Virus record (IMG/VR): IMGVR_UViG_2834277561_000001
Span: 1 to 58,687 of that record
From: a virus
Lineage: Duplodnaviria > Heunggongvirae > Uroviricota > Caudoviricetes
DNA length: 58,687 nucleotides
Strand: one strand, 5' to 3'
Shown: positions 3,609-43,182 of the stretch, piece after piece
How the letters are laid out: each line of letters starts with the position of its first letter
Position numbering within the stretch: position 1 is the stretch's first letter
Position numbers and translations under genes: made by a program
Notes under the pieces: model-generated
Database searches by the model: none
Seen by the model: the letters and a program-made list of their open reading frames with translations, nothing else
What the model was told of the DNA's origin: nothing

Positions 3609-4220
3609 TTAAATACCTTCTTTCTGTGAATAAATACTCCCATCAGGATAATGAATTTCTAATGCCTCAACTTCAGGTAAAAGCTTGGAATGATAGATAT
3701 CATTTCCTCCGCTTTGTTCGTAAAGCTTTCCCATCTCAATGAACGTTTTTAATCCGTCTGGAGTAACATACCCTTGGTTTATAAAGTCTTTGTGCATGCG
3801 CCATAAAGAGCTTCTAAAAGAAGCTACTGTGCGATCATTTTGAGTGTTAATAAAATCTTGCATCATCTGAGATAATTCGGTTATCTGACCGCTTAATCCT
3901 TCTTGATTTTCTTTCAATTCATCTCTAATCTGAATACTCTGTTCGTGATAACCTTTTTGTTTCCGGTACAGAGATTTTTCACGATCTTCAATTTCATTAC
4001 GAAGCTGTTTAACGGCTTTCTCAAGATCAATAATTCTTTGTTCCTGAGCTTTTTTATATAAACTAGATTTTGTTTCAAGTCCTAATATTTTCATTATTTT
4101 TTTGCCAATTGTAACAAGTGCGATAATGGTAATTGCGATATATAATAATGATACAAGAACATTTAATTCCCCTATTTTGTGAACTTGTTTTATAGCTTCA
4201 ATTCCATCCATATTACACAT
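3609..4220 (-). CDS. Membrane-anchored coiled-coil protein of the lysis cassette
   Basis: One N-terminal TM segment, coiled coil, YEQSGGN motif; sits between lysin and holin. Confidence 0.65.
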   Translation of the reverse strand: MCNMDGIEAIKQVHKIGELNVLVSLLYIAITIIALVTIGKKIMKILGLETKSSLYKKAQEQRIIDLEKAVKQLRNEIEDREKSLYRKQKGYHEQSIQIRDELKENQEGLSGQITELSQMMQDFINTQNDRTVASFRSSLWRMHKDFINQGYVTPDGLKTFIEMGKLYEQSGGNDIYHSKLLPEVEALEIHYPDGSIYSQKEGI

Positions 4221-4223
4221 CCA

Positions 4224-5954
4224 TTACTGTTTATCAACATGTCCAGAGAGGATATAGCCATAGATTTTGCCACCGATACAGATGTAGTACCAATCATTGC
4301 CAGAAGCAGATTTTATTGTGTCACAAACATCAACAAGATTACCTTTATTCAGTGTTGGGTAAGATGTTAATTGAGCATATTTTTTACCTGGATTTTTACG
4401 TACAGGTGCATTGTTTTTATTTACTTTTCCGACAAATTTACGAACTTTTGATGGGGCTTTAGAAGTAGTAGAAGATGTATTTTTAGACTTAGCAGCGATT
4501 ACAGCATTAAGTTTTGTAATTGTGTTTTTACCAGCAACACCGTCAACTTCGAGATTATATTTCTTCTGGAAAGAAGTGACAGCAGCTTTTGTTGCGGAAC
4601 CATATTCACCATCAACTGTAAGCTTATATCCAACCTTGTTAAGCTTAGTCTGAAGTGTTTTTACAGCATCACCTTTGTCCCCAACCGTGAGATAATTCTT
4701 TGTATTTGTATGAGTTGTTGGAATAGAAGTAGAAGAATTCCCAGATACAATAGATATTACAAGAGAGTAGTTAGGAGTACAGAATTTAGTTCCTGGAAGC
4801 TTTGAATTGTAATAAGATTTGGCACATACACCACCGCCATTAGCAACAATACCAGAAGCACCAGATGTATTTCCTTCAATTGTCCAGAACTTATCACCCC
4901 GAACCTTTGTTACTAATCCTGTATGTCTGAATTCACCAGAACGATAGAAGATTACAATATCTCCAACTTTCGGATTTGCGTTTTTAGTGAAAAGAGATCC
5001 TAATGTTGGACAGTATACATAAGGCCAATGTTTAAGCAATTTTTTCGCCATTGTAAGACCAAATGCTTTCATAAAGCACCATGAAACGAATGCGGCACAC
5101 CATGGCTCAGTCTGATATGCAGGGTATATATCTCGCCAGTATTTTGTAAAATTGTTATATCCAGCATTGGCTGTTTTACTATTTAATTGAGCATTTGATT
5201 TTTTCTCAAGATAGCCAATTTCATTCTGAGCAGTTTTAATTACAGCGTTAATTGCTTGTTCTTTTGTTGTTTTATTTGTCATAGTATTATTTCCTTTATT
5301 TGTGTTACTTGAAATGGAAGAATTGGTAGAATTACCAAGAAGTTTAGGATTATAGCAGATATCTCCATCGAAGTTCTGATTGAATCCAGCCAATCTAGCT
5401 CGACTAGAATACTGGAAAATATCACATGAAATTGGGCTTTCATGGTAAGAATAATCTGATTTATAATGAGCATACCAGAGATAATAGCCTTTATTTTTTA
5501 CACGGTCTGAATACATTGTCTTGTAATAATCATCATTGCAATAATAACCAGGAGCAATTCCTGCTGCTTTTACAGTATCGCAAAAAGCAATTGTAAAATC
5601 ATTACATTCTTTTGAGCCAAGAGTTATTCCTTGTGCTTTAGCTTTCTTTACTGTATCATATTCGAAATCGTAAAAAATTGTTGGAATATTATACGGTTTA
5701 CATGCATTGATACAAATCGTTGCTTCATTTTTAGCTTGAGCTACATTTAAAGCATAAGTAAACCAGTAAGCACCAATAATCTTAATACCTACTGACTGAC
5801 AAGCTTTAGCGTACTGATCAAACCTAGAATCTTTAGTTGTTCCGTAACCGGCTCTAAGAATAATATAATTGATGCCAGCCGATTTAAGCTTTTTGAAATC
5901 GAGATTACCTTGCCAGTAACTAATGTCAATTAATTTTGTAGACATGTTATGCAA
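4224..5954 (-). CDS. Endolysin: GH25 muramidase + CHAP + peptidoglycan-binding + SH3-like domain
   Basis: IDISYWQG..DF..LK..GI.YIILRAGYG and FYDFE (GH25); PWCAAFVSW, HTGLV, TIEGNTS (CHAP); GDKGDAVKTLQTKL..VDG.YG..T..AV..FQ (PG-binding). Probable start is the ATG at 5945 after AGGAGG. Confidence 0.92.
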   Translation of the reverse strand: MHNMSTKLIDISYWQGNLDFKKLKSAGINYIILRAGYGTTKDSRFDQYAKACQSVGIKIIGAYWFTYALNVAQAKNEATICINACKPYNIPTIFYDFEYDTVKKAKAQGITLGSKECNDFTIAFCDTVKAAGIAPGYYCNDDYYKTMYSDRVKNKGYYLWYAHYKSDYSYHESPISCDIFQYSSRARLAGFNQNFDGDICYNPKLLGNSTNSSISSNTNKGNNTMTNKTTKEQAINAVIKTAQNEIGYLEKKSNAQLNSKTANAGYNNFTKYWRDIYPAYQTEPWCAAFVSWCFMKAFGLTMAKKLLKHWPYVYCPTLGSLFTKNANPKVGDIVIFYRSGEFRHTGLVTKVRGDKFWTIEGNTSGASGIVANGGGVCAKSYYNSKLPGTKFCTPNYSLVISIVSGNSSTSIPTTHTNTKNYLTVGDKGDAVKTLQTKLNKVGYKLTVDGEYGSATKAAVTSFQKKYNLEVDGVAGKNTITKLNAVIAAKSKNTSSTTSKAPSKVRKFVGKVNKNNAPVRKNPGKKYAQLTSYPTLNKGNLVDVCDTIKSASGNDWYYICIGGKIYGYILSGHVDKQ

Positions 5955-6091: not shown

Positions 6092-6379
6092 ATGATAGAT
6101 AATACGTACAATTACATCCCCATCCCCGTGATCGCTTCATTCAATACTTCTGGAGATTTTATGCCAATTTGGTTTCGTTATAACGACTGCGTATATGACG
6201 TAGCGGTAAGTTCACATAAAGAAACCTATAATTCCAAAATATTTTATTGTGAAATCATAAAAGCATCAAATGAAGATGAGGGGAATTATATGATTGGGAA
6301 AAGAATAGAAATCATATATTATGAAAGAAATCATATTTGGGGAATTGTAAAGAATAGTTCTTTAATACAAGATGTGTAA
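6092..6379 (+). CDS. Small hypothetical moron protein, probably SOS-regulated
   Basis: 95 aa, opposite strand, own promoter; IPVIASF..G...PIWFRY resembles small clostridial proteins found with Y-family polymerases. Confidence 0.6.
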   Translation: MIDNTYNYIPIPVIASFNTSGDFMPIWFRYNDCVYDVAVSSHKETYNSKIFYCEIIKASNEDEGNYMIGKRIEIIYYERNHIWGIVKNSSLIQDV

Positions 6380-6388
6380 AATTTAATT

Positions 6389-7051
6389 TTAACCTACACG
6401 CATCCACATATAAACATTAACGTATGGAGGCATATTATTGTGAGCTGCTGTTTCAGAACCTGTTGCCCCAGTAGTAGAAGCATAAGTCGTCACAGTATGG
6501 CTATGATTGCCAGCTTCTGAAGTATCACCAAATCTAAAATCAGATGTTTCAGAACCACCGCCATTTGCTCTTGCTACTCCACTAGATTTAGTTGCACAGT
6601 TATTGTCATATTTAGCTCTTATAAAATGTGTATGGTTGCCAGATTCACCGGTATATCCACTTAAAGAAGGAATACTATGACTATGGCTTGGCATATTTTC
6701 AATACTCAAAGCAACAGTACTTTCACCGCCTGTACCACCAATAGCACTTCCTGAATATAAAAAACGATCATTAATACGTTCCCATGTGCCAAAACCAAAA
6801 TAGTTCTTCACTTTGTCAGGAGTTGTTAAAGAAGGTGCATTTAACGTATTTCCATTTATTTTTTTATTCGTCCAAGTAAATATATATCCAATTGGTACAA
6901 GCTTTTCGATTCTATCATTTAACTCTTTACCCTGGTTAGCACTTAACGGCAGAGTAGTAGAAGTCGAATTAAGATTATTCACCACATTCTTACTTAACAC
7001 TTTATAAAAGTTAGCAAAGCTATTTTGAATTATTTCTTTTAAATTTGTCAT
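6389..7051 (-). CDS. Short tail fibre/baseplate protein
   Basis: VVNNLNST..LPLSANQGKELN, PIGYIF..FGTWE, TGGE..V.L...NMPSHSH, HNNMPPY..VYMW.R. Confidence 0.75.
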   Translation of the reverse strand: MTNLKEIIQNSFANFYKVLSKNVVNNLNSTSTTLPLSANQGKELNDRIEKLVPIGYIFTWTNKKINGNTLNAPSLTTPDKVKNYFGFGTWERINDRFLYSGSAIGGTGGESTVALSIENMPSHSHSIPSLSGYTGESGNHTHFIRAKYDNNCATKSSGVARANGGGSETSDFRFGDTSEAGNHSHTVTTYASTTGATGSETAAHNNMPPYVNVYMWMRVG

Positions 7052-35600: not shown

Positions 35601-36986
35601 CAATAAAGCATTTTGAATATTAGAATCCAATTTATCAAAAGAATCTGTAGTCTGTAAATATTGTCCAAGAGAATCAGACATGCTTTTCCATTGATCAGCT
35701 ATAAGTGCAGAAGTCGATGCTGATTTATTCGCCGCCTCTGTTGCCTGAGTTGCAAATTTACTCGATAAATCATTTGAAAAAGTATCTAGTTGTTTTGTGA
35801 CATCATCAATTTGCTGTGATGTAGCTTCCATTACTTCAAAAGATGTTCTCTGCGTAACATTGCCAGATTTATCTACATCGGTATAAGAATAAGGTTCGTA
35901 GTTTTTTATACCAGATTTTTTTAAGGCTTGCTCAATCTTACTATAATATTCCGCATATAAATCATCGCCAAGAACAGCAGAATCTATATCTATAGTGCTG
36001 GCATTTTTTAAATTGTTAGATAGTCCAGATACTTTTAATTGGTCTATATTTGCTTGCGCTTTTTCTTGTTGCTTATTGTAACCATCTACTTGTTTTTGGT
36101 ATTTTGCTACTTGTGTAGTAACCCCTTTAAACTGATCTTGTAACTCTAGCCCAATATTTACATGAGATGACAACATTTGAGCGTCATATAAGGATTGTAT
36201 ACTTTGTGCAGCAGTTTTGGCATTCGTTCCAAGATTCAACATAGCATTGCCTTGAGAATCGATGCCAGACTGAAGCTGTGGATATAATGACGCTAATTGA
36301 TTAGAAAGATCTAAATATGTCTGATAATCATCGTCAGTCAAAGACATATTTGCATTAGTTTTAGAATTTACACCTTTAGCTAATTCCGCGTATTTATCTG
36401 CAACAGAAGAAATCGCATCACTAGTATTTGTAATCTGAGTTTCTGTTTTATTAAAGGACTGTCCTAGAGTATTTAAAGTAGTTTTACCATTGGAGAACTC
36501 ATCAAAAGTATTTTTGATAGTGCTTTGTGCTTCTTGACCTTTATCAATCGCAATTTGGTCACGATTAATCCAATCACTTATACCTTGAACTGCAAGACTA
36601 ATTCCGGTTCCAATAAGCATATCAAGTCCCGCATTGCCTATTGATGCAAGTGCGGTTTTACCAAATGATTTTACACCAGACTTGAGATCGTCCATAAAGG
36701 TGGTTGTTTTAACTGCCTGTTCTCCACCTTTTACAAGTTCATCGTTGAAATCTTTTAAATTGATTCTTGCCCCACGGATTTCTTTTGAGGTATCTTTGTA
36801 CTTATCAGCATACTTATCTAAATTTTTTCCATAAGCTCGTTTAAACTCATCACTAATATCTAAGCCTTTATATAATTCATCTTTTAAATTAGCGCCTTCA
36901 CCTGCATTTGCTAAATTGCCTAATACAGATTCTAATGTGTTTTTAGTATTTTTTCTGTTCTGATAATTTTGGAGTATTCCACTTAT
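29625..36986 (-). CDS. Tape measure protein, exon 2
   Basis: Frame is open upstream of the track ATG (36695) to the 3' splice site (ATA AGT GGA...); long coiled coil, ALVNELG.E, GFSNGG; 2454 codons including stop. Confidence 0.88.
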   Translation of the reverse strand: MSGILQNYQNRKNTKNTLESVLGNLANAGEGANLKDELYKGLDISDEFKRAYGKNLDKYADKYKDTSKEIRGARINLKDFNDELVKGGEQAVKTTTFMDDLKSGVKSFGKTALASIGNAGLDMLIGTGISLAVQGISDWINRDQIAIDKGQEAQSTIKNTFDEFSNGKTTLNTLGQSFNKTETQITNTSDAISSVADKYAELAKGVNSKTNANMSLTDDDYQTYLDLSNQLASLYPQLQSGIDSQGNAMLNLGTNAKTAAQSIQSLYDAQMLSSHVNIGLELQDQFKGVTTQVAKYQKQVDGYNKQQEKAQANIDQLKVSGLSNNLKNASTIDIDSAVLGDDLYAEYYSKIEQALKKSGIKNYEPYSYTDVDKSGNVTQRTSFEVMEATSQQIDDVTKQLDTFSNDLSSKFATQATEAANKSASTSALIADQWKSMSDSLGQYLQTTDSFDKLDSNIQNALLKNLGNIDISKLSKEYDGDAVQFMYDQFITPLSNLSKDSQKALADVFDIDQAKTTAVDYAKQVNTALEKAFPNDKDLQQKWKDNFGLTSIIDENQRQLDAIKKAPGLENATSQIENLTGEDRQIAYDLVAKDDFSGTFAELQAAIEKTKNTVSGDNLLSGLQGNVKDIQTQYSNISSAISESMSDTGLTADSISTLKNGLQSIIDSSDELKDYDLNALFTNTSKGVKLDNDRLEDLLDIQHQIKEKDFAESIQKQNDVINEQSKALETVKKGTDEYTDAQDNLKTAQEQLAEMQQAQSQYYAQYQQQKQLFSDYAEWQRATQTENSGDKYLSMVSGLDTAKKAWDAGEIGTDDFKSFAKMISPSGATDPFNFAENYAKAARYLTSDESGLVHFFEDLSTKTDAAGQAMASFNEETQSWELNTHDLGEVAQKLGTGTPVVEALFGRAEDYGATTTVISDMQDGILKATEATKNWSEAKARLDQMNEENAQAQKDGKDPIYNTTAIKAAEDEVAKYKQQIDGLQESMDYYAEHNLGSEAQQKKIKTAADEIKNIQEQVQAAENANNKALADSYRNMAKEKAAAAGITVDDNLNVTGDGKTAQEQLKEKSSSTSSTLSGIDFDYDKTTMSLDQIDSKIKELQDAKVNVDVAVDGEDAVNTLDTEISSLEAQKIQVQIQTAVENGNSFQELLTLSDQELMTTVGCDASQVDQVRDEIREMSGEQVDLTVAMDSTQFVALINAITGEKVEIPSEVEQPQEPDTSNIESTPVEIPSEVEQPQEPDLSAIEGTPVTFKSEVESPDTPDIQGGVVYYKAEVEDATTGNTSSGTIDYKKGNVEKADGETSEGTINYEKGTVQKADGEISTGTINYDLGSVAVPTGIVATGTINYTLGSVAQPHKASGTMNSPASSPAHATGTIYSGSTYYNTVNYGSAYANGKIALDHNETALVNELGQESIIRGDRWLMLPPGMHTQALKRGDIVLNARQTSDLINHGKATGTARAFAHGSLKSIAPAHADVGGATLKFQGGLASPKYGNTKSTDKTTKAVDKAAKDVSKAAKDSSKWTDPWKNVKDWFERVVTKLQGIIDLNKAKSDNTYDYNKQNSYANNSISTTETLISKYRQAEKMYTKKSDQYAKKIGLSSKLKKKVQNGTVNIESLSAVNKQKVDAYQKWYDKILNCKKQIEELKTKEKELYKQKLDNITTRYDALIGVYSKANDSLDGLNSWREEIGASQVIGSDYYNAVQQKVDNGNQMRTYYKDEISALTKEYGNIVKKYGADSTFAKETLSQIEELKNTFYENEKTTAENTNKLAELNMTMAENEVDKYTRASDALSSYRDFKEKNSYKHSNYGNVTENDYVEAMKVNDKTILAYQHQKDLILTEMAKVSVDSPKYQEYAKQLADVNKNILEANNDTADLKESLVELRFKPLEDARDTIELLVTDLDNLRDMMDSDTFMNDDGSMTKQGLANIALLNKASEATKQQLANDKAQLETIQQMYDNDLLTEDQYKQYIKDINSDIQKSSKAIYSYQQSLMQVYLDQISKENDYLQENINKRKTALTAKKDYYDYDKTLKSKNKDIDTIKAQIAALEGTTNASAKARLEQLKADLKDKEDDLADTKYQHQIEMEEKGYENLSDQANDTLDKTTQAVKSNSDLQKSIIDNMLKETQKSYSDAYEQIEEIIKNTGYSVSESFDEIITKAKLTSEEVKKVSPSVTASGEGVDNQRTDKNQADQYTKNAANSSSTGANATKDYSNANPSANDLSESGTSGQQNAQLNNNLSESMKEYNAKKSALQQWYKGVGGDVDKTKLKEKHHDFYTYFWKKGKNVRQKDFEEVARILGHNYIIKQPYSKWKKSWKDKIFNELKGYGFSNGGVINSVIPMDSNSIYGEYLSRSDDTGMIFARPGESVMTEKFTELLKPSLATMDQFTKLANPQGILPNTQMTNQDITFSPNIEITVDSISNDMDLKHLGKELSDIMYPMFTKRMRKDLSRSSGKNR
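33267..33371. repeat. Tandem 66-bp-period repeat in TMP (VEIPSEVEQPQEPD x2)
   Basis: atcgggttcttgaggYtgttctacttctgatggaatttc occurs twice; four GTI(N/D)Y repeats lie nearby at ~32950-33145. Confidence 0.8.
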
Positions 36987-37067
36987 CTGCGAAAAATATT
37001 TTTTGGATAATATTGTATACAGAAAAAAACTTATATGCTAAAATAAAAAGAAAAAGGATGTGATTAC

Positions 37068-37220
37068 ATGACGGCGGTAGTATTAGTAGTCCTTATATTA
37101 ATTTTTGGAACTTTAGCAGAAGTAGGAAAATCAGGTTCTACAGATTTAGGTAGTATGTTACTCGTTATTGGAGTACCAGTTGGTATCTTTTTAATTCTTG
37201 CTTTACTCGGCGTAAGATAA
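37068..37220 (+). CDS. 50-aa two-TM membrane protein (intron cargo; absent from the ORF track)
   Basis: AAAGGATGTG SD, ATG, MTAVVLVVLILIFGTLAEVGKSGSTDLGSMLLVIGVPVGIFLILALLGVR*; TGcTAAAAT extended -10 upstream. Confidence 0.65.
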   Translation: MTAVVLVVLILIFGTLAEVGKSGSTDLGSMLLVIGVPVGIFLILALLGVR

Positions 37221-37262
37221 GACTGATGTCCTACAAAATGTAGTCATATAAAGGAGATATAT

Positions 37263-37841
37263 ATGAATATAAATGAAAAATGCCCAAACTGTAGACAAAA
37301 AGGGCATCTCAGCTATCTTAACATATATGGGCAAACTATTATAAAATGTATGACATGTGGCTCATTATACAATCAAGATGGTAGTAAATATGTTTTTCCA
37401 AAAACTTTCTGTTATATTTGCCCGAAATGTGGAAACGATTATGTCTACCCTGAGAATTATGCCCACACTTGTAAAAAATGTGGTTATCCGAATATGATTA
37501 AAACAGAATTCACAGGAGATGAACATACGAAACTTGCAATGGACAACGACGAAAAGTTTGAGAAATTTTTGTCCCATCTTCGAGAAAAATATGTTGTTGA
37601 TAATCCGGATTTAGATAAAGAACTCTATCAAGAAACATTGGATAAGGAATTCCAAGACTCTTTGTTGAATTCTGTAGAAGAAGAGGAGTATGAAGAACCA
37701 AAGATACATTGCCCGAAATGTAACTCGACTAATATTACAACTGGTCAGCGCGGGTATTCATTCTGGACTGGATTTCTCGGTTCCGGCAAAACAATGAACC
37801 GTTGTGGTAATTGCGGCTATAAATGGACACCTGGAAAATAA
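37263..37841 (+). CDS. Multi zinc-ribbon protein (intron cargo)
   Basis: AAGGAG SD; three CxxC...CxxC pairs; C-terminal CPKC.STNI...RGYS..TG..GS.K..NRC.NCGYKW seen in prophage morons. Confidence 0.8.
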
Positions 37842-38144
37842 TAAATAGTAATAGAGAAGGAGAGTAGTGATACTCTCCTTAAATATATAACGAGAGCATG
37901 ACAAAACCAACTCTCGTTTCAATGGTGCTTATAAAGTTGTCTTCGTGGCAAAACCTCTATTCAACCTAATACTTATAAATTCTAGCAAAACTATTTTTAT
38001 AAGTATAAGCATCACTATCGGAAATCGTTCACGATAATTTTTTATATATGGAGTGCCCGAATCTGCCGATATGATCCCCTCATCAAGTGAACCTATTTTA
38101 AATGTATAATACCAGGAGAGTTACAACTCTCTCTTTTTTTATAC

Positions 38145-38172
38145 AAAAAAAGAACAGCCCATGAAGCTGTTC
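38145..38172 (-). terminator. Minus-strand intrinsic terminator inside the intron
   Basis: GAACAGC-TTCATGG-GCTGTTC-TTTTTTT; a plus-strand terminator lies back-to-back at 38115-38140. Confidence 0.75.
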
Positions 38173-38400
38173 CAAAAAACTCAACCGTTTTTTGCTAGTA
38201 TAAGCAAAATATTCGAATTTATATTATTTCATAACAATATCCAGACAAATATCTCATCAATATACTAGAAATCGTTGTGAGCCTATAAAAATGCGTCCAT
38301 TTTCAAGCTCAAAAAAGAATACTATTGATATTGAGAAATATCAAACACTACGCAGTGACAGGACACAAACCGTGTATACGACGGGATAATATTTCTACTT
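38145..38400 (-). ncRNA. Candidate ~250-nt structured RNA downstream of the PemK-like gene (possible RNA antitoxin)
   Basis: Promoter TTGACA-17-TATATT (38435-38407) inside the last codons of the toxin gene; no ORF; several hairpins; ends at a terminator. Confidence 0.45.
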
Positions 38401-39204
38401 ATGTTTAATATATCCTTTTCCCCTATTATTGTCAACATGTTTCTTTTTATTTTTCGGTTCTGATTTTAGTCTTTGTTGTTCTAATATGTTTATTCTGAAT
38501 TTTAAATCATGAACCTGTTTCTCAAGTTCTTTATTTCTTTTTTTATATTCATCATTGTTCTTTATAAGAGATTGATGTCTTTGATGAATAGTAGGATACA
38601 TGATTTGAAATACCTGCATTTGTATATCAGACAAAACAGTATCTGAAATTGTGGTAATCTCTTTATCTATTCTAGCGCGTGAAATAAATTTTGCGTCATT
38701 GATAAGTAAAACACAATCTTTAGGGAATCCATCACTCATCAATCCTTGCCTGTATTTTTTATTCCCGTTTTTATTATTTGTAGGATGATAACTTTGTGGA
38801 AAAATATCATCACCACTTCGAATAGGAACTACTAAAAATTTATTGTCTTTAACACCAATGCATAATCCATGGTGATAATATCCCAACTCTCCGGCAAATG
38901 TATTTCCATAATCAATATAGTATGTATGTCCTATTTTTGGAATAATTTGTTTTTTATTATCATCGTAAGATACTGTCGTATGACATTTTCTCATCCAATT
39001 CATATCACTGAATAGTATAGATGCTGCGTCATACGCATTTTGTCTTTTTAACCCCTGAATGTAATTATGCATATACTGAACAGCTGCAAGCATAATTACA
39101 GAATATTTGATTGACTTATTTGTTTTATTCTTTTCGATATGCTCTGTATATCTCTTTATGTTTGTGACATCACTCCAAATCATATTCTCATGATTCATTT
39201 GCAT
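38395..39204 (-). CDS. PemK/MazF-fold endoribonuclease toxin-like protein with C-terminal coiled coil (intron cargo)
   Basis: IGHTYYIDYG..F.GELGYYHHGLCI...LVVPI.S and ..IS..RI pattern match MazF/PemK; own promoter TTGACG-17-CATAAT (39269-39241). Confidence 0.68.
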   Translation of the reverse strand: MQMNHENMIWSDVTNIKRYTEHIEKNKTNKSIKYSVIMLAAVQYMHNYIQGLKRQNAYDAASILFSDMNWMRKCHTTVSYDDNKKQIIPKIGHTYYIDYGNTFAGELGYYHHGLCIGVKDNKFLVVPIRSGDDIFPQSYHPTNNKNGNKKYRQGLMSDGFPKDCVLLINDAKFISRARIDKEITTISDTVLSDIQMQVFQIMYPTIHQRHQSLIKNNDEYKKRNKELEKQVHDLKFRINILEQQRLKSEPKNKKKHVDNNRGKGYIKHK

Positions 39205-39370
39205 ATTTTAGTTCACCATCCAATATTGTGTATTAATATTATTATGTGACAAAATATGACAAACGTCAATTCAGAACGTATGTATGGAAATAAGATAATC
39301 TAATGATTTTTGTTGACAAAACATTAATTTCATCGTATGTTGAGTATAATATATTGAAGGAGATATTAGT

Positions 39371-39634
39371 ATGAACAAAAAAGAAATTAGCAGTAATATA
39401 TCACTTGTCTATCGTGATATAGAAAATACATATTCTGATTCAAAATCTATTTTGGCTGATATTATGAAACATGCAAATGACAATTTTGAAGAAATTGAAA
39501 ATATATATCGTCTTGTTGCAATGATATCTTTTTACAAAAATAATTACAGTCAGAGAGGCGGCGAAATATTATTTGAAGAATTCTCCAAAAATATTCCGGA
39601 ATTTAGACGTATCTATAAAGTTTTTGCTTCATAA
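39371..39634 (+). CDS. Hypothetical protein (intron cargo)
   Basis: AAGGAG SD, promoter TTGACA-17-TATGTT (39313-39341), terminator GAGAGC..GCTCTC-T tract at 39664-39687. Confidence 0.7.
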   Translation: MNKKEISSNISLVYRDIENTYSDSKSILADIMKHANDNFEEIENIYRLVAMISFYKNNYSQRGGEILFEEFSKNIPEFRRIYKVFAS

Positions 39635-39703
39635 ATTCATATTTTGAATTAATACTAAATAATGAGAGCTATTTGCTCTCCTTTTTTGTTTGCAAGATTT
39701 ATC

Positions 39704-39732
39704 TTGACAATATGACACATGTGTCATAATAT
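39704..39732 (+). promoter_or_regulatory. Promoter with a perfect 18-bp palindromic operator
   Basis: TTGACA (39704) -17- TAATAT; TATGACACATGTGTCATA at 39711-39728. Confidence 0.75.
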
Positions 39733-39763
39733 ATGACTATAAAGGCATAAAGGAGGAACATAA

Positions 39764-40102
39764 ATGAGTATTAATGTCCAAAATATTGATTTATCTAAAA
39801 TGAAAAAATGGACTCCAGAATCAATTCTAAAAAAGAAACGAATAGAATCTGGTTTTACACAAAAACAAGTTGCCGATATCTTAGGAATATCTTTGCGACA
39901 GTGGCAGAGATATGAAAAAGATGACGATCTGTCATGCGTCACATTTCAAATGGGTGTAAATATTTGTGAACTTCTCAATATTGACGTGTATACTTATGTC
40001 ACTCCATTGAATGATATATTAGAACACAATCTTGCTACTCCTGGTGAAGTAGAAGAAAGTACCAAAAGAGAAATCATAAATAAATTTAAGGGAGAAATGT
40101 GA
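39764..40102 (+). CDS. XRE-family helix-turn-helix regulator (intron cargo)
   Basis: LKKKRIESGFTQKQVADILGISLRQWQRYE; AAGGAGG SD. Confidence 0.88.
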   Translation: MSINVQNIDLSKMKKWTPESILKKKRIESGFTQKQVADILGISLRQWQRYEKDDDLSCVTFQMGVNICELLNIDVYTYVTPLNDILEHNLATPGEVEESTKREIINKFKGEM

Positions 40103-40368
40103 TTGTGAATAATTTTCGATTCCATTATGCAAGGGCAATAATTACAGTTCCAAAAACCGATGATATTGAAATGAACCGTGAAATCAGAAGAAGAATTAAT
40201 CTATTTGAAAAAGACAATAGAATGTATATAGATCTCATGAAATTTTTGCTAGATAACCAAATTCCTGTTAGAGCAATACCTGAAGATTATGCCAATGAAG
40301 ATCAAATAGATTATGTCTCACGACTTAATACTGCATATAAAAACCTAGGATTATTCTATAATTGCTAA
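40099..40368 (+). CDS. Hypothetical protein coupled to the XRE gene (intron cargo)
   Basis: GTGA start/stop overlap, 89 aa. Confidence 0.65.
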   Translation: MIVNNFRFHYARAIITVPKTDDIEMNREIRRRINLFEKDNRMYIDLMKFLLDNQIPVRAIPEDYANEDQIDYVSRLNTAYKNLGLFYNC

Positions 40369-40379
40369 TTATATAATTT

Positions 40380-41052
40380 AGAAGTGGAAGATACTTGTTC
40401 TTCCAAAAAAATATTGTGTTGACTCGCGAACATTACTATAAGCAATGACGAGTAATATAATGCAGAAAATATGTTCTGCTTTCAATTACAACTATTTTTT
40501 CTGCTCATATTTTAATTCTCCGCAGTGGAGATATCCGAAGTTGCGTCGGATTGGTATTCACTCTATATTCGCACATCGCAACCATACCAATTTGCAATGC
40601 TCCAAAAATTGCTGACAGAAGGGTAGTATATAGAAACTATCCCTGAATGATTCGGGCATCTGTCTTCCCTATCGCTAGAGTGCATCTTCGTGATTCCCGA
40701 TGAAACCACGCTTTCGTTACGCTCGTTGAGGTCGGTATCCTTTCTTATTAGAACGAAACCCTACCTGCGGATTACCTCGTGTTTTGAATTATTCCCTTAC
40801 CTCATGCTTTCACATTCGCCACCTATTCCTATTAAGAATAGGTTTGAGATCAAAACCATGTGACGCAGACTTTTGAACTGCGAAGGTTCCCCGTTCCCAC
40901 CATTCATAGTAGGAGAGTAACACATTACTGTTACTCCATATTAGAAAGTCACTATAGAAGTCCTTGCTTTTCAGCTCGTACACGTTACCGTTAAACTTCT
41001 AAGCGGCATAAGTCATTTGAAAAATGCATGGGGCGAATTCCCATGTACTCTT
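40380..41052 (-). ncRNA. Group I ribozyme core and P9 extension of the TMP intron
   Basis: P1, P3 CTTTC/GAAAG, P4 CGG/CCG, long P5 extension, P6 GGT/ACC, P7 GAG/CTC, P8 CGTGGTTTC/GGAATCACG; ORF-free and GC-richer than the flanks. Confidence 0.8.
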
Positions 41053-43182
41053 ACCGCTGCCTGTTTTGCCCTGGAAGATTCCAAGACCGATCGCTGCTGT
41101 ATTTAACATACCAATCGAACTTGTCAAATTTGTAAACAAATTTAATAAGTTTGTGCCACCATCTACTAATCCTTTAAACATATCAGAAGAAAACGTAGTC
41201 GTAGCCATTTTCTGAAATGCAGATTCAAACTGTTGTTGTTTAGCTTCAATAGATTCTAGCCATCTATCCTGTTCCTGTTGCGCAGAACCATCAGAATTTA
41301 ATGTGTCTTGATATGCTTTTTGAACTTGTCCAGATTGGAATCCTTGAATTAATGCAGCAATTTGGTTGCCTCTATTCTTACCTGCTAATTTTTCGAGTAA
41401 TTCCGCTCTATTTTTATCAGTCAAATCATCATAGATTTCACTGATTTCTTCCATAAGAGTATATGTATCTTTATATGTCTGCTTTGTATCATCAGTAAAC
41501 AGACTAATGCCGCCAGGTGTTTTTGCCGTTTTTGTTAAGTCAGCAATTGCACCTGAAAGTTCTTCTGTGTCATTGGTGTATGAATCGGTTTCTTCGTCAT
41601 AACCTCTTACCCTCATGGCGAGGATCTTTAGTGCATTTCCAGCTTCTGGTGCACTCTGCGTGATTTCTGACATTCCTGTAAGCATAGCTAGAGAATGACC
41701 AAGGTCGTTTCCTGCGGTTGCTAAAGAAGATGCCGAATTGGATAGTCCCTCACCTAAATCTGCACTTGAAGTTGCGAAATTATTACCCAGAATATTTAAT
41801 TGATCAATTATAGATTCTGCATCTGATGCTTGAATATTAAACGCCTTCATAGCAGTAACCATATCGGAAACTGCTGTATTGTCACTAACTTCACCAACAT
41901 TTGCATACATTGAACTTAATTTGGAAAGTTGCTCAGAATCATCTAATGAGTATCCAAGTTTTGACCATTCAGATGTTTGGGAAATATAGGAAGACATGCT
42001 TCTTCCTAATTTAGGTGCATTATTAGAAGCAGTATCAAGATATTTAGAATAACGAGACTGTGATTCATCCGTTACTTTATACAAATTAGTCATTGCTGAA
42101 TCAACGTCTTTGACCGAATTAATTACTTTAGACGGAACTTCCATTATTACATTTTGAATTGCACCATAAATTCCTGCGAACTGTCCGATTTGCTTAAAAG
42201 CTCGCTTGAATTCATCTATCCCAGATTTCCCTGTTAAACCTTCGGCAGAAATACGGGATTGTAAATTTTTGAACGCGGTATCAAGAGTTGCCTTTTCTTC
42301 GACAGTAGTAACTTGTCGATACTGTTGCTCAAGTTCTTTTAATGTTGCACCATATCTTTTTACAGCCTTACTGTTTGATTCATAATAGGCAGCAACTTTA
42401 TTTGCAGATTGTTCCGCCACGCCCAGTCCAAGAGTTTTTGATGTTTCGTCTTTAATCTGAGAAAATACATTCTTGAATGATGTTTCTGCTTTTTGTATTT
42501 TCTGAATGGTATTATCTAAAGATTCATCATCAAGTATTGAAGTTCCTGATTTATGATCTTTTAAAGCAACTAGGGATGATGAAAATTCCTGCATTAACCC
42601 ATTGGCTTTTTCAATATTAGGTGTTGACTGACCTGCATAGGATTCCATCTGCTTTCTCATTCGTGAAAGGATAGCATCGCCTTTTTCAGAGTCTATATAT
42701 GTTTCTAAAGAACTGTTTTGCTTAGATGCAGATTGTTCCGCTTCACGTCGAGCTTTTTCTGTGGCTTTTTGAATTTCTTTGTTTGCTCGTTCTTGTTCTT
42801 TTGCCACGGCAGAGTAATAGCCTTGTGCATCTTTTTTTGCATCATTTTCAGATAAATCTGGATAAATTTTCCCTAATTCATCAGCAGTATCTTTGATATC
42901 TTTTCTCATTTTTTGCTGTGTTTTAGAAAATTCAGAAGCACTCGAAATACTGGCTTTCCCAATTCCAGAATTTATCCCTTGTGAAATTTGCGTTCCAATA
43001 TTTTGTCCAGCTTTTTTATACTGAGAGGAATTTCCTGAAATTAACTTATCTAATCCAGAAAGGCCACTCGTATCAAAATCTATTTTTACGGACTTTCCTT
43101 GAAGAGATTTGATTTTTTGCTCAATCTCATCTATCTTTTCTTGCCCATGGGGTACTATGTTGACATCTACATTAAATTCCAA
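41053..43182 (-). CDS. Tape measure protein, exon 1 (TP901-type TMP core)
   Basis: VDSAMTNLYKVTD, WSKLGYSL, GNNFATSSADLGEGL, GNALKI.AMR.RG, LLEKLAGKNRGN; 710 codons from TTG to the 5' splice site. Confidence 0.9.

Follow-up and report, generated by a model that had tools for sequence, protein, structure and literature searches.

A MazF/PemK-fold protein paired with a conserved downstream structured RNA: a candidate type III-like toxin-antitoxin module in a new layout

The 58,687-nucleotide (nt) stretch analysed here, hereafter the window, corresponds to the opening 58.7 kb of an IMG/VR provirus record of 201 kb (IMGVR_UViG_2834277561_000001; Caudoviricetes). On its minus strand it carries a gene for a 269-amino-acid (aa) MazF/PemK-like protein, with a promoter within the last codons of the gene, a structured non-coding RNA of ~255 nt directly downstream and a terminator at the end of the unit. 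The same arrangement recurs at homologous loci, where gene and RNA form a fixed pair with conserved promoter, terminator and RNA structure, and where conservation extends to no protein partner. MazF toxins are the classic example of a family with protein antitoxins (type II), and the ToxN-type toxins are their distant RNA-controlled relatives. The reading we favour, to which comparative sequence analysis lends a probability of roughly 0.55, is that the pair is a type III-like toxin and RNA antitoxin in a new layout. The further proposal that it typifies an undescribed type III-like family, in which true MazF/PemK toxins are each followed by one long multi-hairpin antitoxin RNA with its promoter in the last toxin codons, is more tentative and falls a little short of even odds.

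The toxin-like gene and its downstream RNA

The unit consists of the following features, in which class A refers to the homologous RNAs described in the next section.

38395..39204, minus strand: 269-aa toxin-like gene, comprising an N-terminal extension, a MazF/PemK-fold domain and a C-terminal coiled coil (list of open reading frames, ORFs)
38941..39204, minus strand: N-terminal extension, residues 1 to ~88, of no recognisable family (no Pfam, PHROG or PADLOC match)
38623..38937, minus strand: predicted MazF/PemK-fold domain, residues 90-194 (hhalign, PDB profile search, PF02452)
38425..38598, minus strand: C-terminal coiled-coil-like region, residues ~203-260 (weak matches only, to Cnn_1N, DivIC, geminin and ZapB families or chains)
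39241..39269, minus strand: putative toxin-gene promoter, TTGACG-17-CATAAT (10/12 matches, by consensus match only)
38407..38435, minus strand: small-RNA promoter, TTGACA-17-TATATT, within the last toxin codons (11/12 matches; the best match in 36600..41100)
38145..38400, minus strand: ~255-nt non-coding RNA, ORF-free, its start inferred from the -10 box
38334..38396, minus strand: RNA hairpin domain 1 (consensus-fold columns 11-74), with a closing stem resembling that of class A RNAs
38278..38311, minus strand: RNA hairpin 2 (consensus-fold columns 97-130)
38195..38268, minus strand: RNA hairpin 3, long and interrupted (consensus-fold columns 140-213)
38173..38194, minus strand: RNA hairpin 4, an A-run/U-run stem with sequence in common with loci L023, L032, L034 and L001
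38145..38173, minus strand: intrinsic terminator of the toxin-RNA unit (hairpin 38173..38151; 10 pairs, 4 of them G-C, then a T run)

An earlier note, made from the letters of the window alone, had proposed this architecture, and its elements were recovered here: a promoter of the toxin gene's own at 39269..39241 (-), no co-oriented antitoxin ORF, a second promoter in the last codons at 38435..38407 (-), and an ORF-free, hairpin-rich RNA, put at ~250 nt, that ends at a terminator. In the ORF list no ORF of at least 40 aa abuts the toxin gene on its own strand, and from 38394 down to 37923 there is none of that length. Upstream of the gene lie a divergent promoter region and an 87-aa ORF. Terminator-like sites are far more frequent in the region than in shuffled sequence (10 against 1.6 ± 1.3), and a scan of the region found none between the toxin stop codon and the RNA.

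The RNA is predicted to be strongly folded. The minus strand of 38140..38402 folds at -66 kcal/mol (z = -4.03), and 0 of 200 shuffles reach an energy as low. The consensus fold of the window with loci L022 and L023 contains five hairpins and 81 pairs, 5 of which show compensatory changes; in hairpin 3, for instance, pair 141/212 changes from U-A to C-G in L022. No tandem repeats are present in 38100..38460, where the only direct repeat is a 2-copy element of 10 nt. Searched against Rfam, the RNA gives nothing at the gathering threshold, the single sub-threshold match being ncr1241 at the terminator (23.7 bits against 60). A small peptide coded within the RNA was considered and rejected: by eye, an ATG at the head of hairpin 2 is found in 2 of 12 class A RNAs (L014, L015), with differing stops.

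A conserved companion RNA follows the toxin-like gene

Promoter-like sites in the region stand near the level of shuffled sequence (30 against 24.8 ± 4.8), so that the single promoter match in the window is not beyond chance, and conservation decides. Homologous loci number 34 (10 from IMG/VR, 5 from GTDB genomes, 17 from metagenomes and 2 close ones from a family-wide genome search), the GTDB loci belonging to Acetatifactor, Blautia, Roseburia, an uncultured Lachnospiraceae bacterium and an uncultured Eubacteriales bacterium. Of 33 downstream stretches 22 are distinct, the other 11, set aside, being either exact copies or under 250 nt long; the promoter was compared across 21 distinct loci, with L026, whose stop is not determinable, left out. 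All 21 carry TTGACA and, 17 nt later (18 nt in two loci), a -10-like hexamer that coincides with the stop codon or lies close to it; a structured RNA and then a terminator come next. The strict pattern TTGACA-N17-TAnnnT occurs just 37 times in 438,340 nt, both strands, of 33 loci. The downstream DNA is alike by blastn although the proteins are merely 45-50% identical, and the very C-terminal end of the protein, whose codons contain the RNA promoter, shows no conservation in the close-family protein alignment.

The downstream RNAs fall into two classes. Twelve aligned sequences make up class A, an RNA of ~160 nt with three hairpin domains and a terminator. Its structure contains 39 pairs, 14 of them compensatory, and 97.9% of alignment cells are paired, compared with 37-46% for slid partners and with 0 of 500 shuffles as high. 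In 18 of 29 sources a covariance model of class A (R1) places the RNA immediately behind the gene at E <= 3e-12, and these include L005 and L006, both outside the seed; it further yields weak matches at the correct place in L034 (E 0.0075) and L022 (E 0.2). Rfam matched nothing at the RNA of class A loci. The window itself belongs with L022, L023, L032, L034 and L001 to a divergent class B, whose members have in common their position, the promoter, a hairpin-1 closing stem that is similar by eye and an A-run/U-run hairpin before the terminator. In the window both the closing stem and the 5' flank of hairpin domain 1 look, by eye, like those of class A RNAs. Class B loci form one protein clade (support 100/99), so that the RNA variant tracks the protein clade; the tree includes two outgroup rows that begin too far upstream and so have 4 and 6 read-through stops, and the class B ingroup clade is independent of them. 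The dedicated downstream RNA that the earlier note had proposed for the window alone is, on these grounds, a conserved companion with its own promoter and terminator.

The pairing also holds from the side of the RNA and when the gene is damaged. One exact RNA pattern with 15 specified bases has 50 matches in IMG/VR, 44 of them attributable to chance and 6 confirmed by R1, and all 6 confirmed copies lie in contigs that hold the gene; the test is narrow, with diverged orphan RNAs beyond its reach. In four loci frameshifts divide the toxin ORF into two or three pieces (L007, L008, L009 (about 4001-4758) and L038 (3001-3749)), and the RNA beside it is intact: R1 matches it at about E 1e-40, both in L038 and in the L007, L008 and L009 contigs. 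A broken toxin next to an intact RNA would be the decay typical of toxin-antitoxin pairs, as expected of a harmful protein and its protective RNA.

The protein contains a predicted MazF/PemK-fold domain with a variant active site

Neither PHROGs nor PADLOC contains a family for the 269-aa protein, and a tblastn search of 50,697 phage records gave no match. Its 39 close homologues of ~250 aa are all unnamed. Membership in the MazF/PemK family becomes significant because the family was widened to a deep profile, the single sequence and the close family being insufficient. The close-family profile (37 of the 39 homologues; alignment A1, which left out P0001, P0035 and P0037) was run on 1.84 billion representative sequences and retrieved 362 relatives at E <= 0.001, and the window protein was aligned with 123 of the 150 representatives listed, short fragments being left out, to give alignment A6. 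The A6 profile matches PDB chains of EndoA (4mdx_A, E 3e-8, chain residues 3-106 of 117) and YdcE (E 3.8e-8), both Bacillus subtilis MazF homologues, as well as PemK (4hke, E 1.4e-7) and Staphylococcus aureus MazF (4mzm, E 7.5e-6). Aligned by hhalign with eight Lachnospiraceae MazF proteins (alignment A4), it scores a probability of 97.3% (E 2e-11) over 94 columns covering window residues 90-194. PF02452 is matched at E <= 0.01 by 76 of 124 family members, and in the nearest ESM-Atlas clusters (0.96, 0.95 and 0.94) by 16%, 54% and 11% of members, respectively. The deep profile establishes the middle of the protein (residues ~90-194) as a predicted MazF/PemK-fold domain, and the label "PemK/MazF-like" given in the earlier note, weak for the single protein, is secured in this way.

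The active site appears to be a variant one. The catalytic residues of MazF, Arg25 and Thr48 in the B. subtilis protein, align in A6 with His111 and Ser130, so that one of the two is replaced (Arg to His111; Thr to Ser130). His111 and Arg178 are each kept in at least 90% of the 124 sequences, and Glu106 is invariant. The protein is most likely an endoribonuclease with a variant active site. In the N-terminal extension W10, N26, Q43, N47 and A60 are invariant in the close family, and residues 1-88 searched against the ESM-Atlas score 0.79, which is chance level.

No protein partner is common to the loci

A co-transcribed antitoxin of the MazE/PemI type would be expected as a neighbouring gene on the same strand, and in the window no co-oriented ORF of at least 40 aa lies beside the toxin gene. 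Nor is any neighbour family common to all loci: when ORFs of at least 40 aa were clustered over 13 loci, the toxin family alone was common to 13/13. The simplest loci contain nothing else. In L017, a Roseburia metagenome-assembled genome, nothing but toxin gene and RNA lies between CstA and a GNAT acetyltransferase gene, and L031 has the same two-part cassette only. The two candidate protein partners flanking the gene in the window are as follows.

39371..39634, plus strand: 87-aa ORF, divergent from the toxin gene (ORF list)
37263..37841, plus strand: 192-aa Cys-rich (zinc-ribbon) ORF, convergent to the toxin gene (ORF list)

The divergent 87-aa gene, which the earlier note had kept as a fallback antitoxin, finds no support in that role. 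It has 0 homologues in 33 other loci, as do the window's helix-turn-helix (HTH) gene, its 89-aa ORF and its 50-aa membrane ORF, and no homologue is found even in L022, whose toxin is 96% identical to the window's. The zinc-ribbon family recurs convergently downstream of the toxin gene in 6 of the 13 clustered loci (the window, L001, L003, L004, L014 and L015), with additional tblastn matches in L022, L023, L032/L037 and L033. Outside the window its coordinates include 5131-5724 and 6130-6639 (-) in L001, 1395-1526 (-) in L023 and 4362-4625 (-) in L022. Pfam matches of the protein are weak (Lar_restr_allev, E 1.8e-4), and neither the minimal cassettes L017 and L031 nor the loci L013 and L016 contain the gene. 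In our reading it often travels with the module and is a minor rival candidate; it may be a third component or else an independent cargo gene.

Comparison with known toxin-antitoxin systems

In the ToxIN/AbiQ, CptIN and TenpIN systems as described by Blower et al. 2012 (PMC3401426), the antitoxin is an array of short repeats arranged in tandem upstream of the toxin, with a terminator before the toxin gene; ToxIN-type toxins cut the repeat array into units, and ToxIN reaches an excess of antitoxin by means of the terminator after the repeats. The window's locus resembles the systems of that account in having a Kid/MazF-superfamily toxin (by sequence profiles), no protein antitoxin and an adjacent small structured RNA expected to be in excess, and likewise in its occurrence in Firmicutes, phages and mobile elements and its likely role in abortive infection or addiction. 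It departs from them in lacking repeats and in having one multi-hairpin RNA of ~160-260 nt downstream, whose own promoter overlaps the toxin stop codon, so that the type III locus definition published there (upstream tandem repeats and a terminator; PMC3401426) does not describe it. The earlier note's statement that the layout differs from type III is upheld on both counts, the absence of repeats in the RNA and its position downstream of the toxin. The protein is also nearer to true MazF/PemK than to ToxN, and has N- and C-terminal extensions. With MazEF, PemIK and EndoA-EndoAI (PF02452; PDB 4mdx, 1ne8, 4hke, 4mzm) it has in common a homologous fold over the whole MazF chain, but unlike these it has no upstream MazE/PemI-type gene, is 269 aa long compared with ~115 aa, and has His in place of the catalytic Arg.

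In the AvcID system the avcI gene lies upstream of avcD. According to the account in PMC10511110, a single non-repetitive small RNA (sRNA), AvcI, inhibits the deaminase AvcD; the RNA has a minimum of ~171 nt and a transcript slightly below 300 nt, binds to the toxin, greatly exceeds the toxin's transcript in abundance and disappears once transcription ceases. How AvcI reaches this excess is stated there as unknown, whereas the window has an evident second promoter for an excess of RNA; AvcD, unlike the window's protein, is a deoxycytidylate deaminase and not of the MazF fold (PMC10511110). In the phi027 prophage of Clostridioides difficile, the toxic protein AbiF is described as neutralised by the adjacent structured RNA RCd22 through direct contact, in cis and in trans, and RCd22 also lowers abiF expression (bioRxiv 10.1101/2025.04.15.648962). 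As that preprint presents them, AbiF is an Abi_2/AbiD/F protein and RCd22 has two abiF motifs, unlike the window's protein and RNA. As reported in these two sources, AvcID and AbiF-RCd22 show precedent for neutralisation of a toxin by a single structured RNA, with toxins unrelated to MazF. Our literature search, in which supplementary motif lists were outside the scope, found no account of a MazF-family toxin followed downstream by an RNA with a promoter of its own; "pemK" is absent from the main text of PMC5737381, whose supplements, where the motif lists sit, may bear on the point.

A sister subfamily carries its RNA upstream

A sister subfamily of ~230 aa, found in 8 of 401 Lachnospiraceae genomes (loci L049-L056), resembles the window's: its proteins are likewise enlarged and MazF-like and end in a coiled-coil tail, a structured RNA lies next to the gene, and no protein partner was seen. 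It differs in having the RNA upstream of the toxin, the classical type III layout. In 6 of the 8 loci (L049, L051-L054 and L056) the toxin start is directly preceded by twin hairpins of similar sequence, additional hairpins and a terminator, the twin hairpins lying ~180-250 nt upstream of the toxin match. Rfam gave no match to these upstream hairpins, and inspection by eye of the sister sequences, on which no model was run, showed no downstream unit of promoter and RNA. RNA control fits the superfamily because the sister subfamily has the classical layout, and it seems to be a trait of the superfamily in which the position of the RNA has changed. A short ACGA-like motif common to upstream-type and downstream-type RNAs was considered as a further link and discarded, as it is not conserved in class A.

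Proposed mechanism and alternative explanations

Under the type III-like reading, the toxin mRNA would extend through the RNA gene, since a terminator-like site is not found anywhere from stop codon to RNA, so that the RNA would form its 3' end, while the near-consensus promoter in the last toxin codons would make the ~255-nt five-hairpin RNA separately. The RNA should then outnumber the protein, since the toxin mRNA carries the RNA and the second promoter adds free copies. We infer that the RNA binds the MazF-like protein directly and neutralises it, as type III antitoxins do, and the extensions of the protein are perhaps the RNA-contact surface, in the way that extra folds of ToxN are described as binding ToxI (PMC3401426). 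If the RNA is labile, a stop in transcription, on infection by another phage or loss of the element, would lead to its decay and free the toxin, which would cut RNA and arrest the cell, with abortive infection or addiction as the presumed biological role of such toxicity. Were the undescribed family real, each toxin mRNA would carry one antidote in cis, with extra copies supplied from the second promoter, and within one superfamily the RNA partner would have changed place, being a twin-hairpin array upstream in one form and a single RNA downstream in the other.

Several observations weigh against the type III-like reading. The R1 model does not match the window's own RNA even at E <= 10, and the kinship of this RNA with class A rests on position, promoter, the by-eye likeness of the hairpin-1 closing stem and the weak R1 matches in L022 and L034. 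Agreement of RNA class with protein clade is weak as a sign of interaction, since linked genes are inherited together in any case. In L026 (594-1211 onward) there is neither the RNA nor an RNA promoter, and from about residue 206 the coiled-coil end of the toxin gives way, in frame, to unrelated sequence; this contig, with 2.3x coverage, may be an assembly chimera. On the protein side, the fold assignment is one made from sequence profiles alone, and the window protein by itself scores below the cut-off of PF02452 (PemK_toxin; E 0.056, 14.1 bits against 23.1, residues 151-198). The close-family profile is not significant either, whether against PDB (EndoA, E 0.15) or by hhalign against the eight Lachnospiraceae MazF proteins (probability 0.76%). 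RNase activity is not assured, because the catalytic Arg is a nearly invariant His in this family. Finally, the recurring zinc-ribbon protein could be a third player.

Two alternatives accept the RNA as a functional partner and assign it another task. The RNA might control synthesis of the toxin, either as a base-pairing sRNA in the manner of type I systems or as a stability or translation element in the 3' untranslated region. The lack of an intervening terminator-like site, which makes the RNA the 3' end of the toxin transcript as well, is in keeping with this, as is the reported lowering of abiF expression by RCd22 in addition to its binding of AbiF (bioRxiv 10.1101/2025.04.15.648962). The RNA lies on the strand of the toxin gene, however, and hence is not antisense to it; RNAduplex of each RNA with its own toxin start (-70..+40) gives no consistent signal over 17 loci (z from -2.62 to +1.65, a crude measure with 25 mononucleotide shuffles each), and type I toxins are small membrane peptides, unlike this soluble-looking protein of 269 aa. 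We regard control of synthesis as unlikely. To a similar degree we doubt that the pair is a MazF-like ribonucleoprotein with a job other than toxin-antitoxin (RNA processing, phage regulation or an anti-defence decoy), with the Arg-to-His change marking a lost or altered RNase. His111 in place of the catalytic Arg, two extra domains without a known role and the position of the gene downstream of a tape-measure-like ORF in 6 of 13 loci, within phage cargo islands, would all suit such a ribonucleoprotein. Conservation at the site (Glu106, His111, Arg178, and Ser130 aligned with Thr) argues instead for a working active site, the cassette stands alone in a bacterial chromosome in L017, and broken toxin genes beside intact RNA fit a harmful protein.

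A protein antitoxin, either the divergent 87-aa ORF or the convergent zinc-ribbon protein, with the RNA reduced to a regulatory or terminator region, is less probable still. The recurrence of the zinc-ribbon gene speaks for it, as does a weak PADLOC match of the 87-aa ORF (PD-Lambda-5_A, E 0.0011, 15.8 bits), but the 87-aa ORF has no counterpart at the other loci, the zinc-ribbon gene is missing from four loci and lies on the opposite strand, which is not an operon arrangement, and only the RNA accompanies the toxin gene throughout. Least credible is that the "RNA" belongs to an intron-like insertion structure of the tape-measure gene or is a chance hairpin-rich spacer. The module does sit inside a ~4-kb tape-measure insertion that opens with a conserved structured RNA; gene and RNA nevertheless occur outside any tape-measure gene in L017, L031, L005 and L006, phage MT835469 combines the same intron-like 5' element with different cargo and lacks such an RNA, and the promoter and terminator of the RNA are conserved. 

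If the type III-like reading is correct, it would describe an RNA-checked MazF-family toxin whose gene order is opposite to all described type III systems, and would widen the definition of a type III locus. Searches restricted to upstream tandem repeats, such as the method described in PMC3401426, miss loci of this kind, and the 362 representative relatives suggest that many "orphan PemK" annotations hide an RNA partner. The module would also offer a simple model in which an excess of antitoxin is hard-wired by a promoter inside the toxin gene, and the superfamily a natural series from type II MazF toxins to type III RNA control. The module rides in phage cargo islands and in chromosomes of gut Lachnospiraceae, which makes it a candidate device for phage exclusion or prophage addiction in the human gut.

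Genomic setting and neighbouring genes

In the window the toxin-RNA module lies within an insertion of ~4 kb (36696..40998) that splits the tape-measure gene. This cargo-island setting goes beyond the earlier note, as do the His in place of the catalytic Arg and the N-terminal and coiled-coil extensions of the protein. The N part of this gene (40999..43182) has PhageMin_Tail, and the frame of the C part is open for at least 104 codons above its first ATG (region 36695..37007). The first ~400 nt of the insertion (region 40600..41082) are ORF-free and G+C-rich (0.44), and share 79% identity with the corresponding site of L001 and of phage MT835469, the changes being compensatory in appearance; Rfam gave no match to this intron-like element. 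At the same site MT835469 has a DUF3800 gene and other cargo, and no toxin. In 6 of 13 loci an ORF resembling the tape-measure N part is found upstream of the toxin gene, and phage cargo islands with the toxin gene also carry GmrSD_N, NYN and DUF3800 accessory genes. Because the unit is co-oriented with the tape-measure gene, the toxin-RNA terminator sits in the path of late (tape-measure) transcription.

Downstream, the terminators of the convergent units stand back to back in 38114..38173, a plus-strand hairpin (38114..38135) closing the zinc-ribbon operon and the minus-strand hairpin (38173..38151) closing the toxin-RNA unit. On the other side of the toxin gene, an HTH_3/HTH_19 regulator of 112 aa, whose stop overlaps the start of the 89-aa ORF without known family, occupies 39764..40368 (+) together with that ORF; the regulator and the 89-aa and 87-aa ORFs make up plus-strand cargo found in this phage alone among the loci seen.

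Other loci have neighbours of their own. A 61-aa ORF divergent from the toxin homologue is found in L003 (3682-3867, minus strand), L004 and L008; it looks Phd/YefM-like by eye, has no Pfam match at E <= 0.001, and adjoins a GmrSD_N gene, with an NYN-domain gene further on. Acetatifactor muris (L013) has, ~1.8 kb upstream of its toxin homologue, a skipping-rope RNA (RF02924; 2120-2199, plus strand; 69.5 bits, E 5.8e-15). The tape-measure gene of MT835469, a 176-kb gut phage (L012, MT835469.1 122516-134903), is in at least four pieces; two of its gaps contain long ORFs, one of them with DUF4379 and a CapR zinc finger and homing-endonuclease-like, and the third gap opens with the same conserved RNA element as the insertion in the window.

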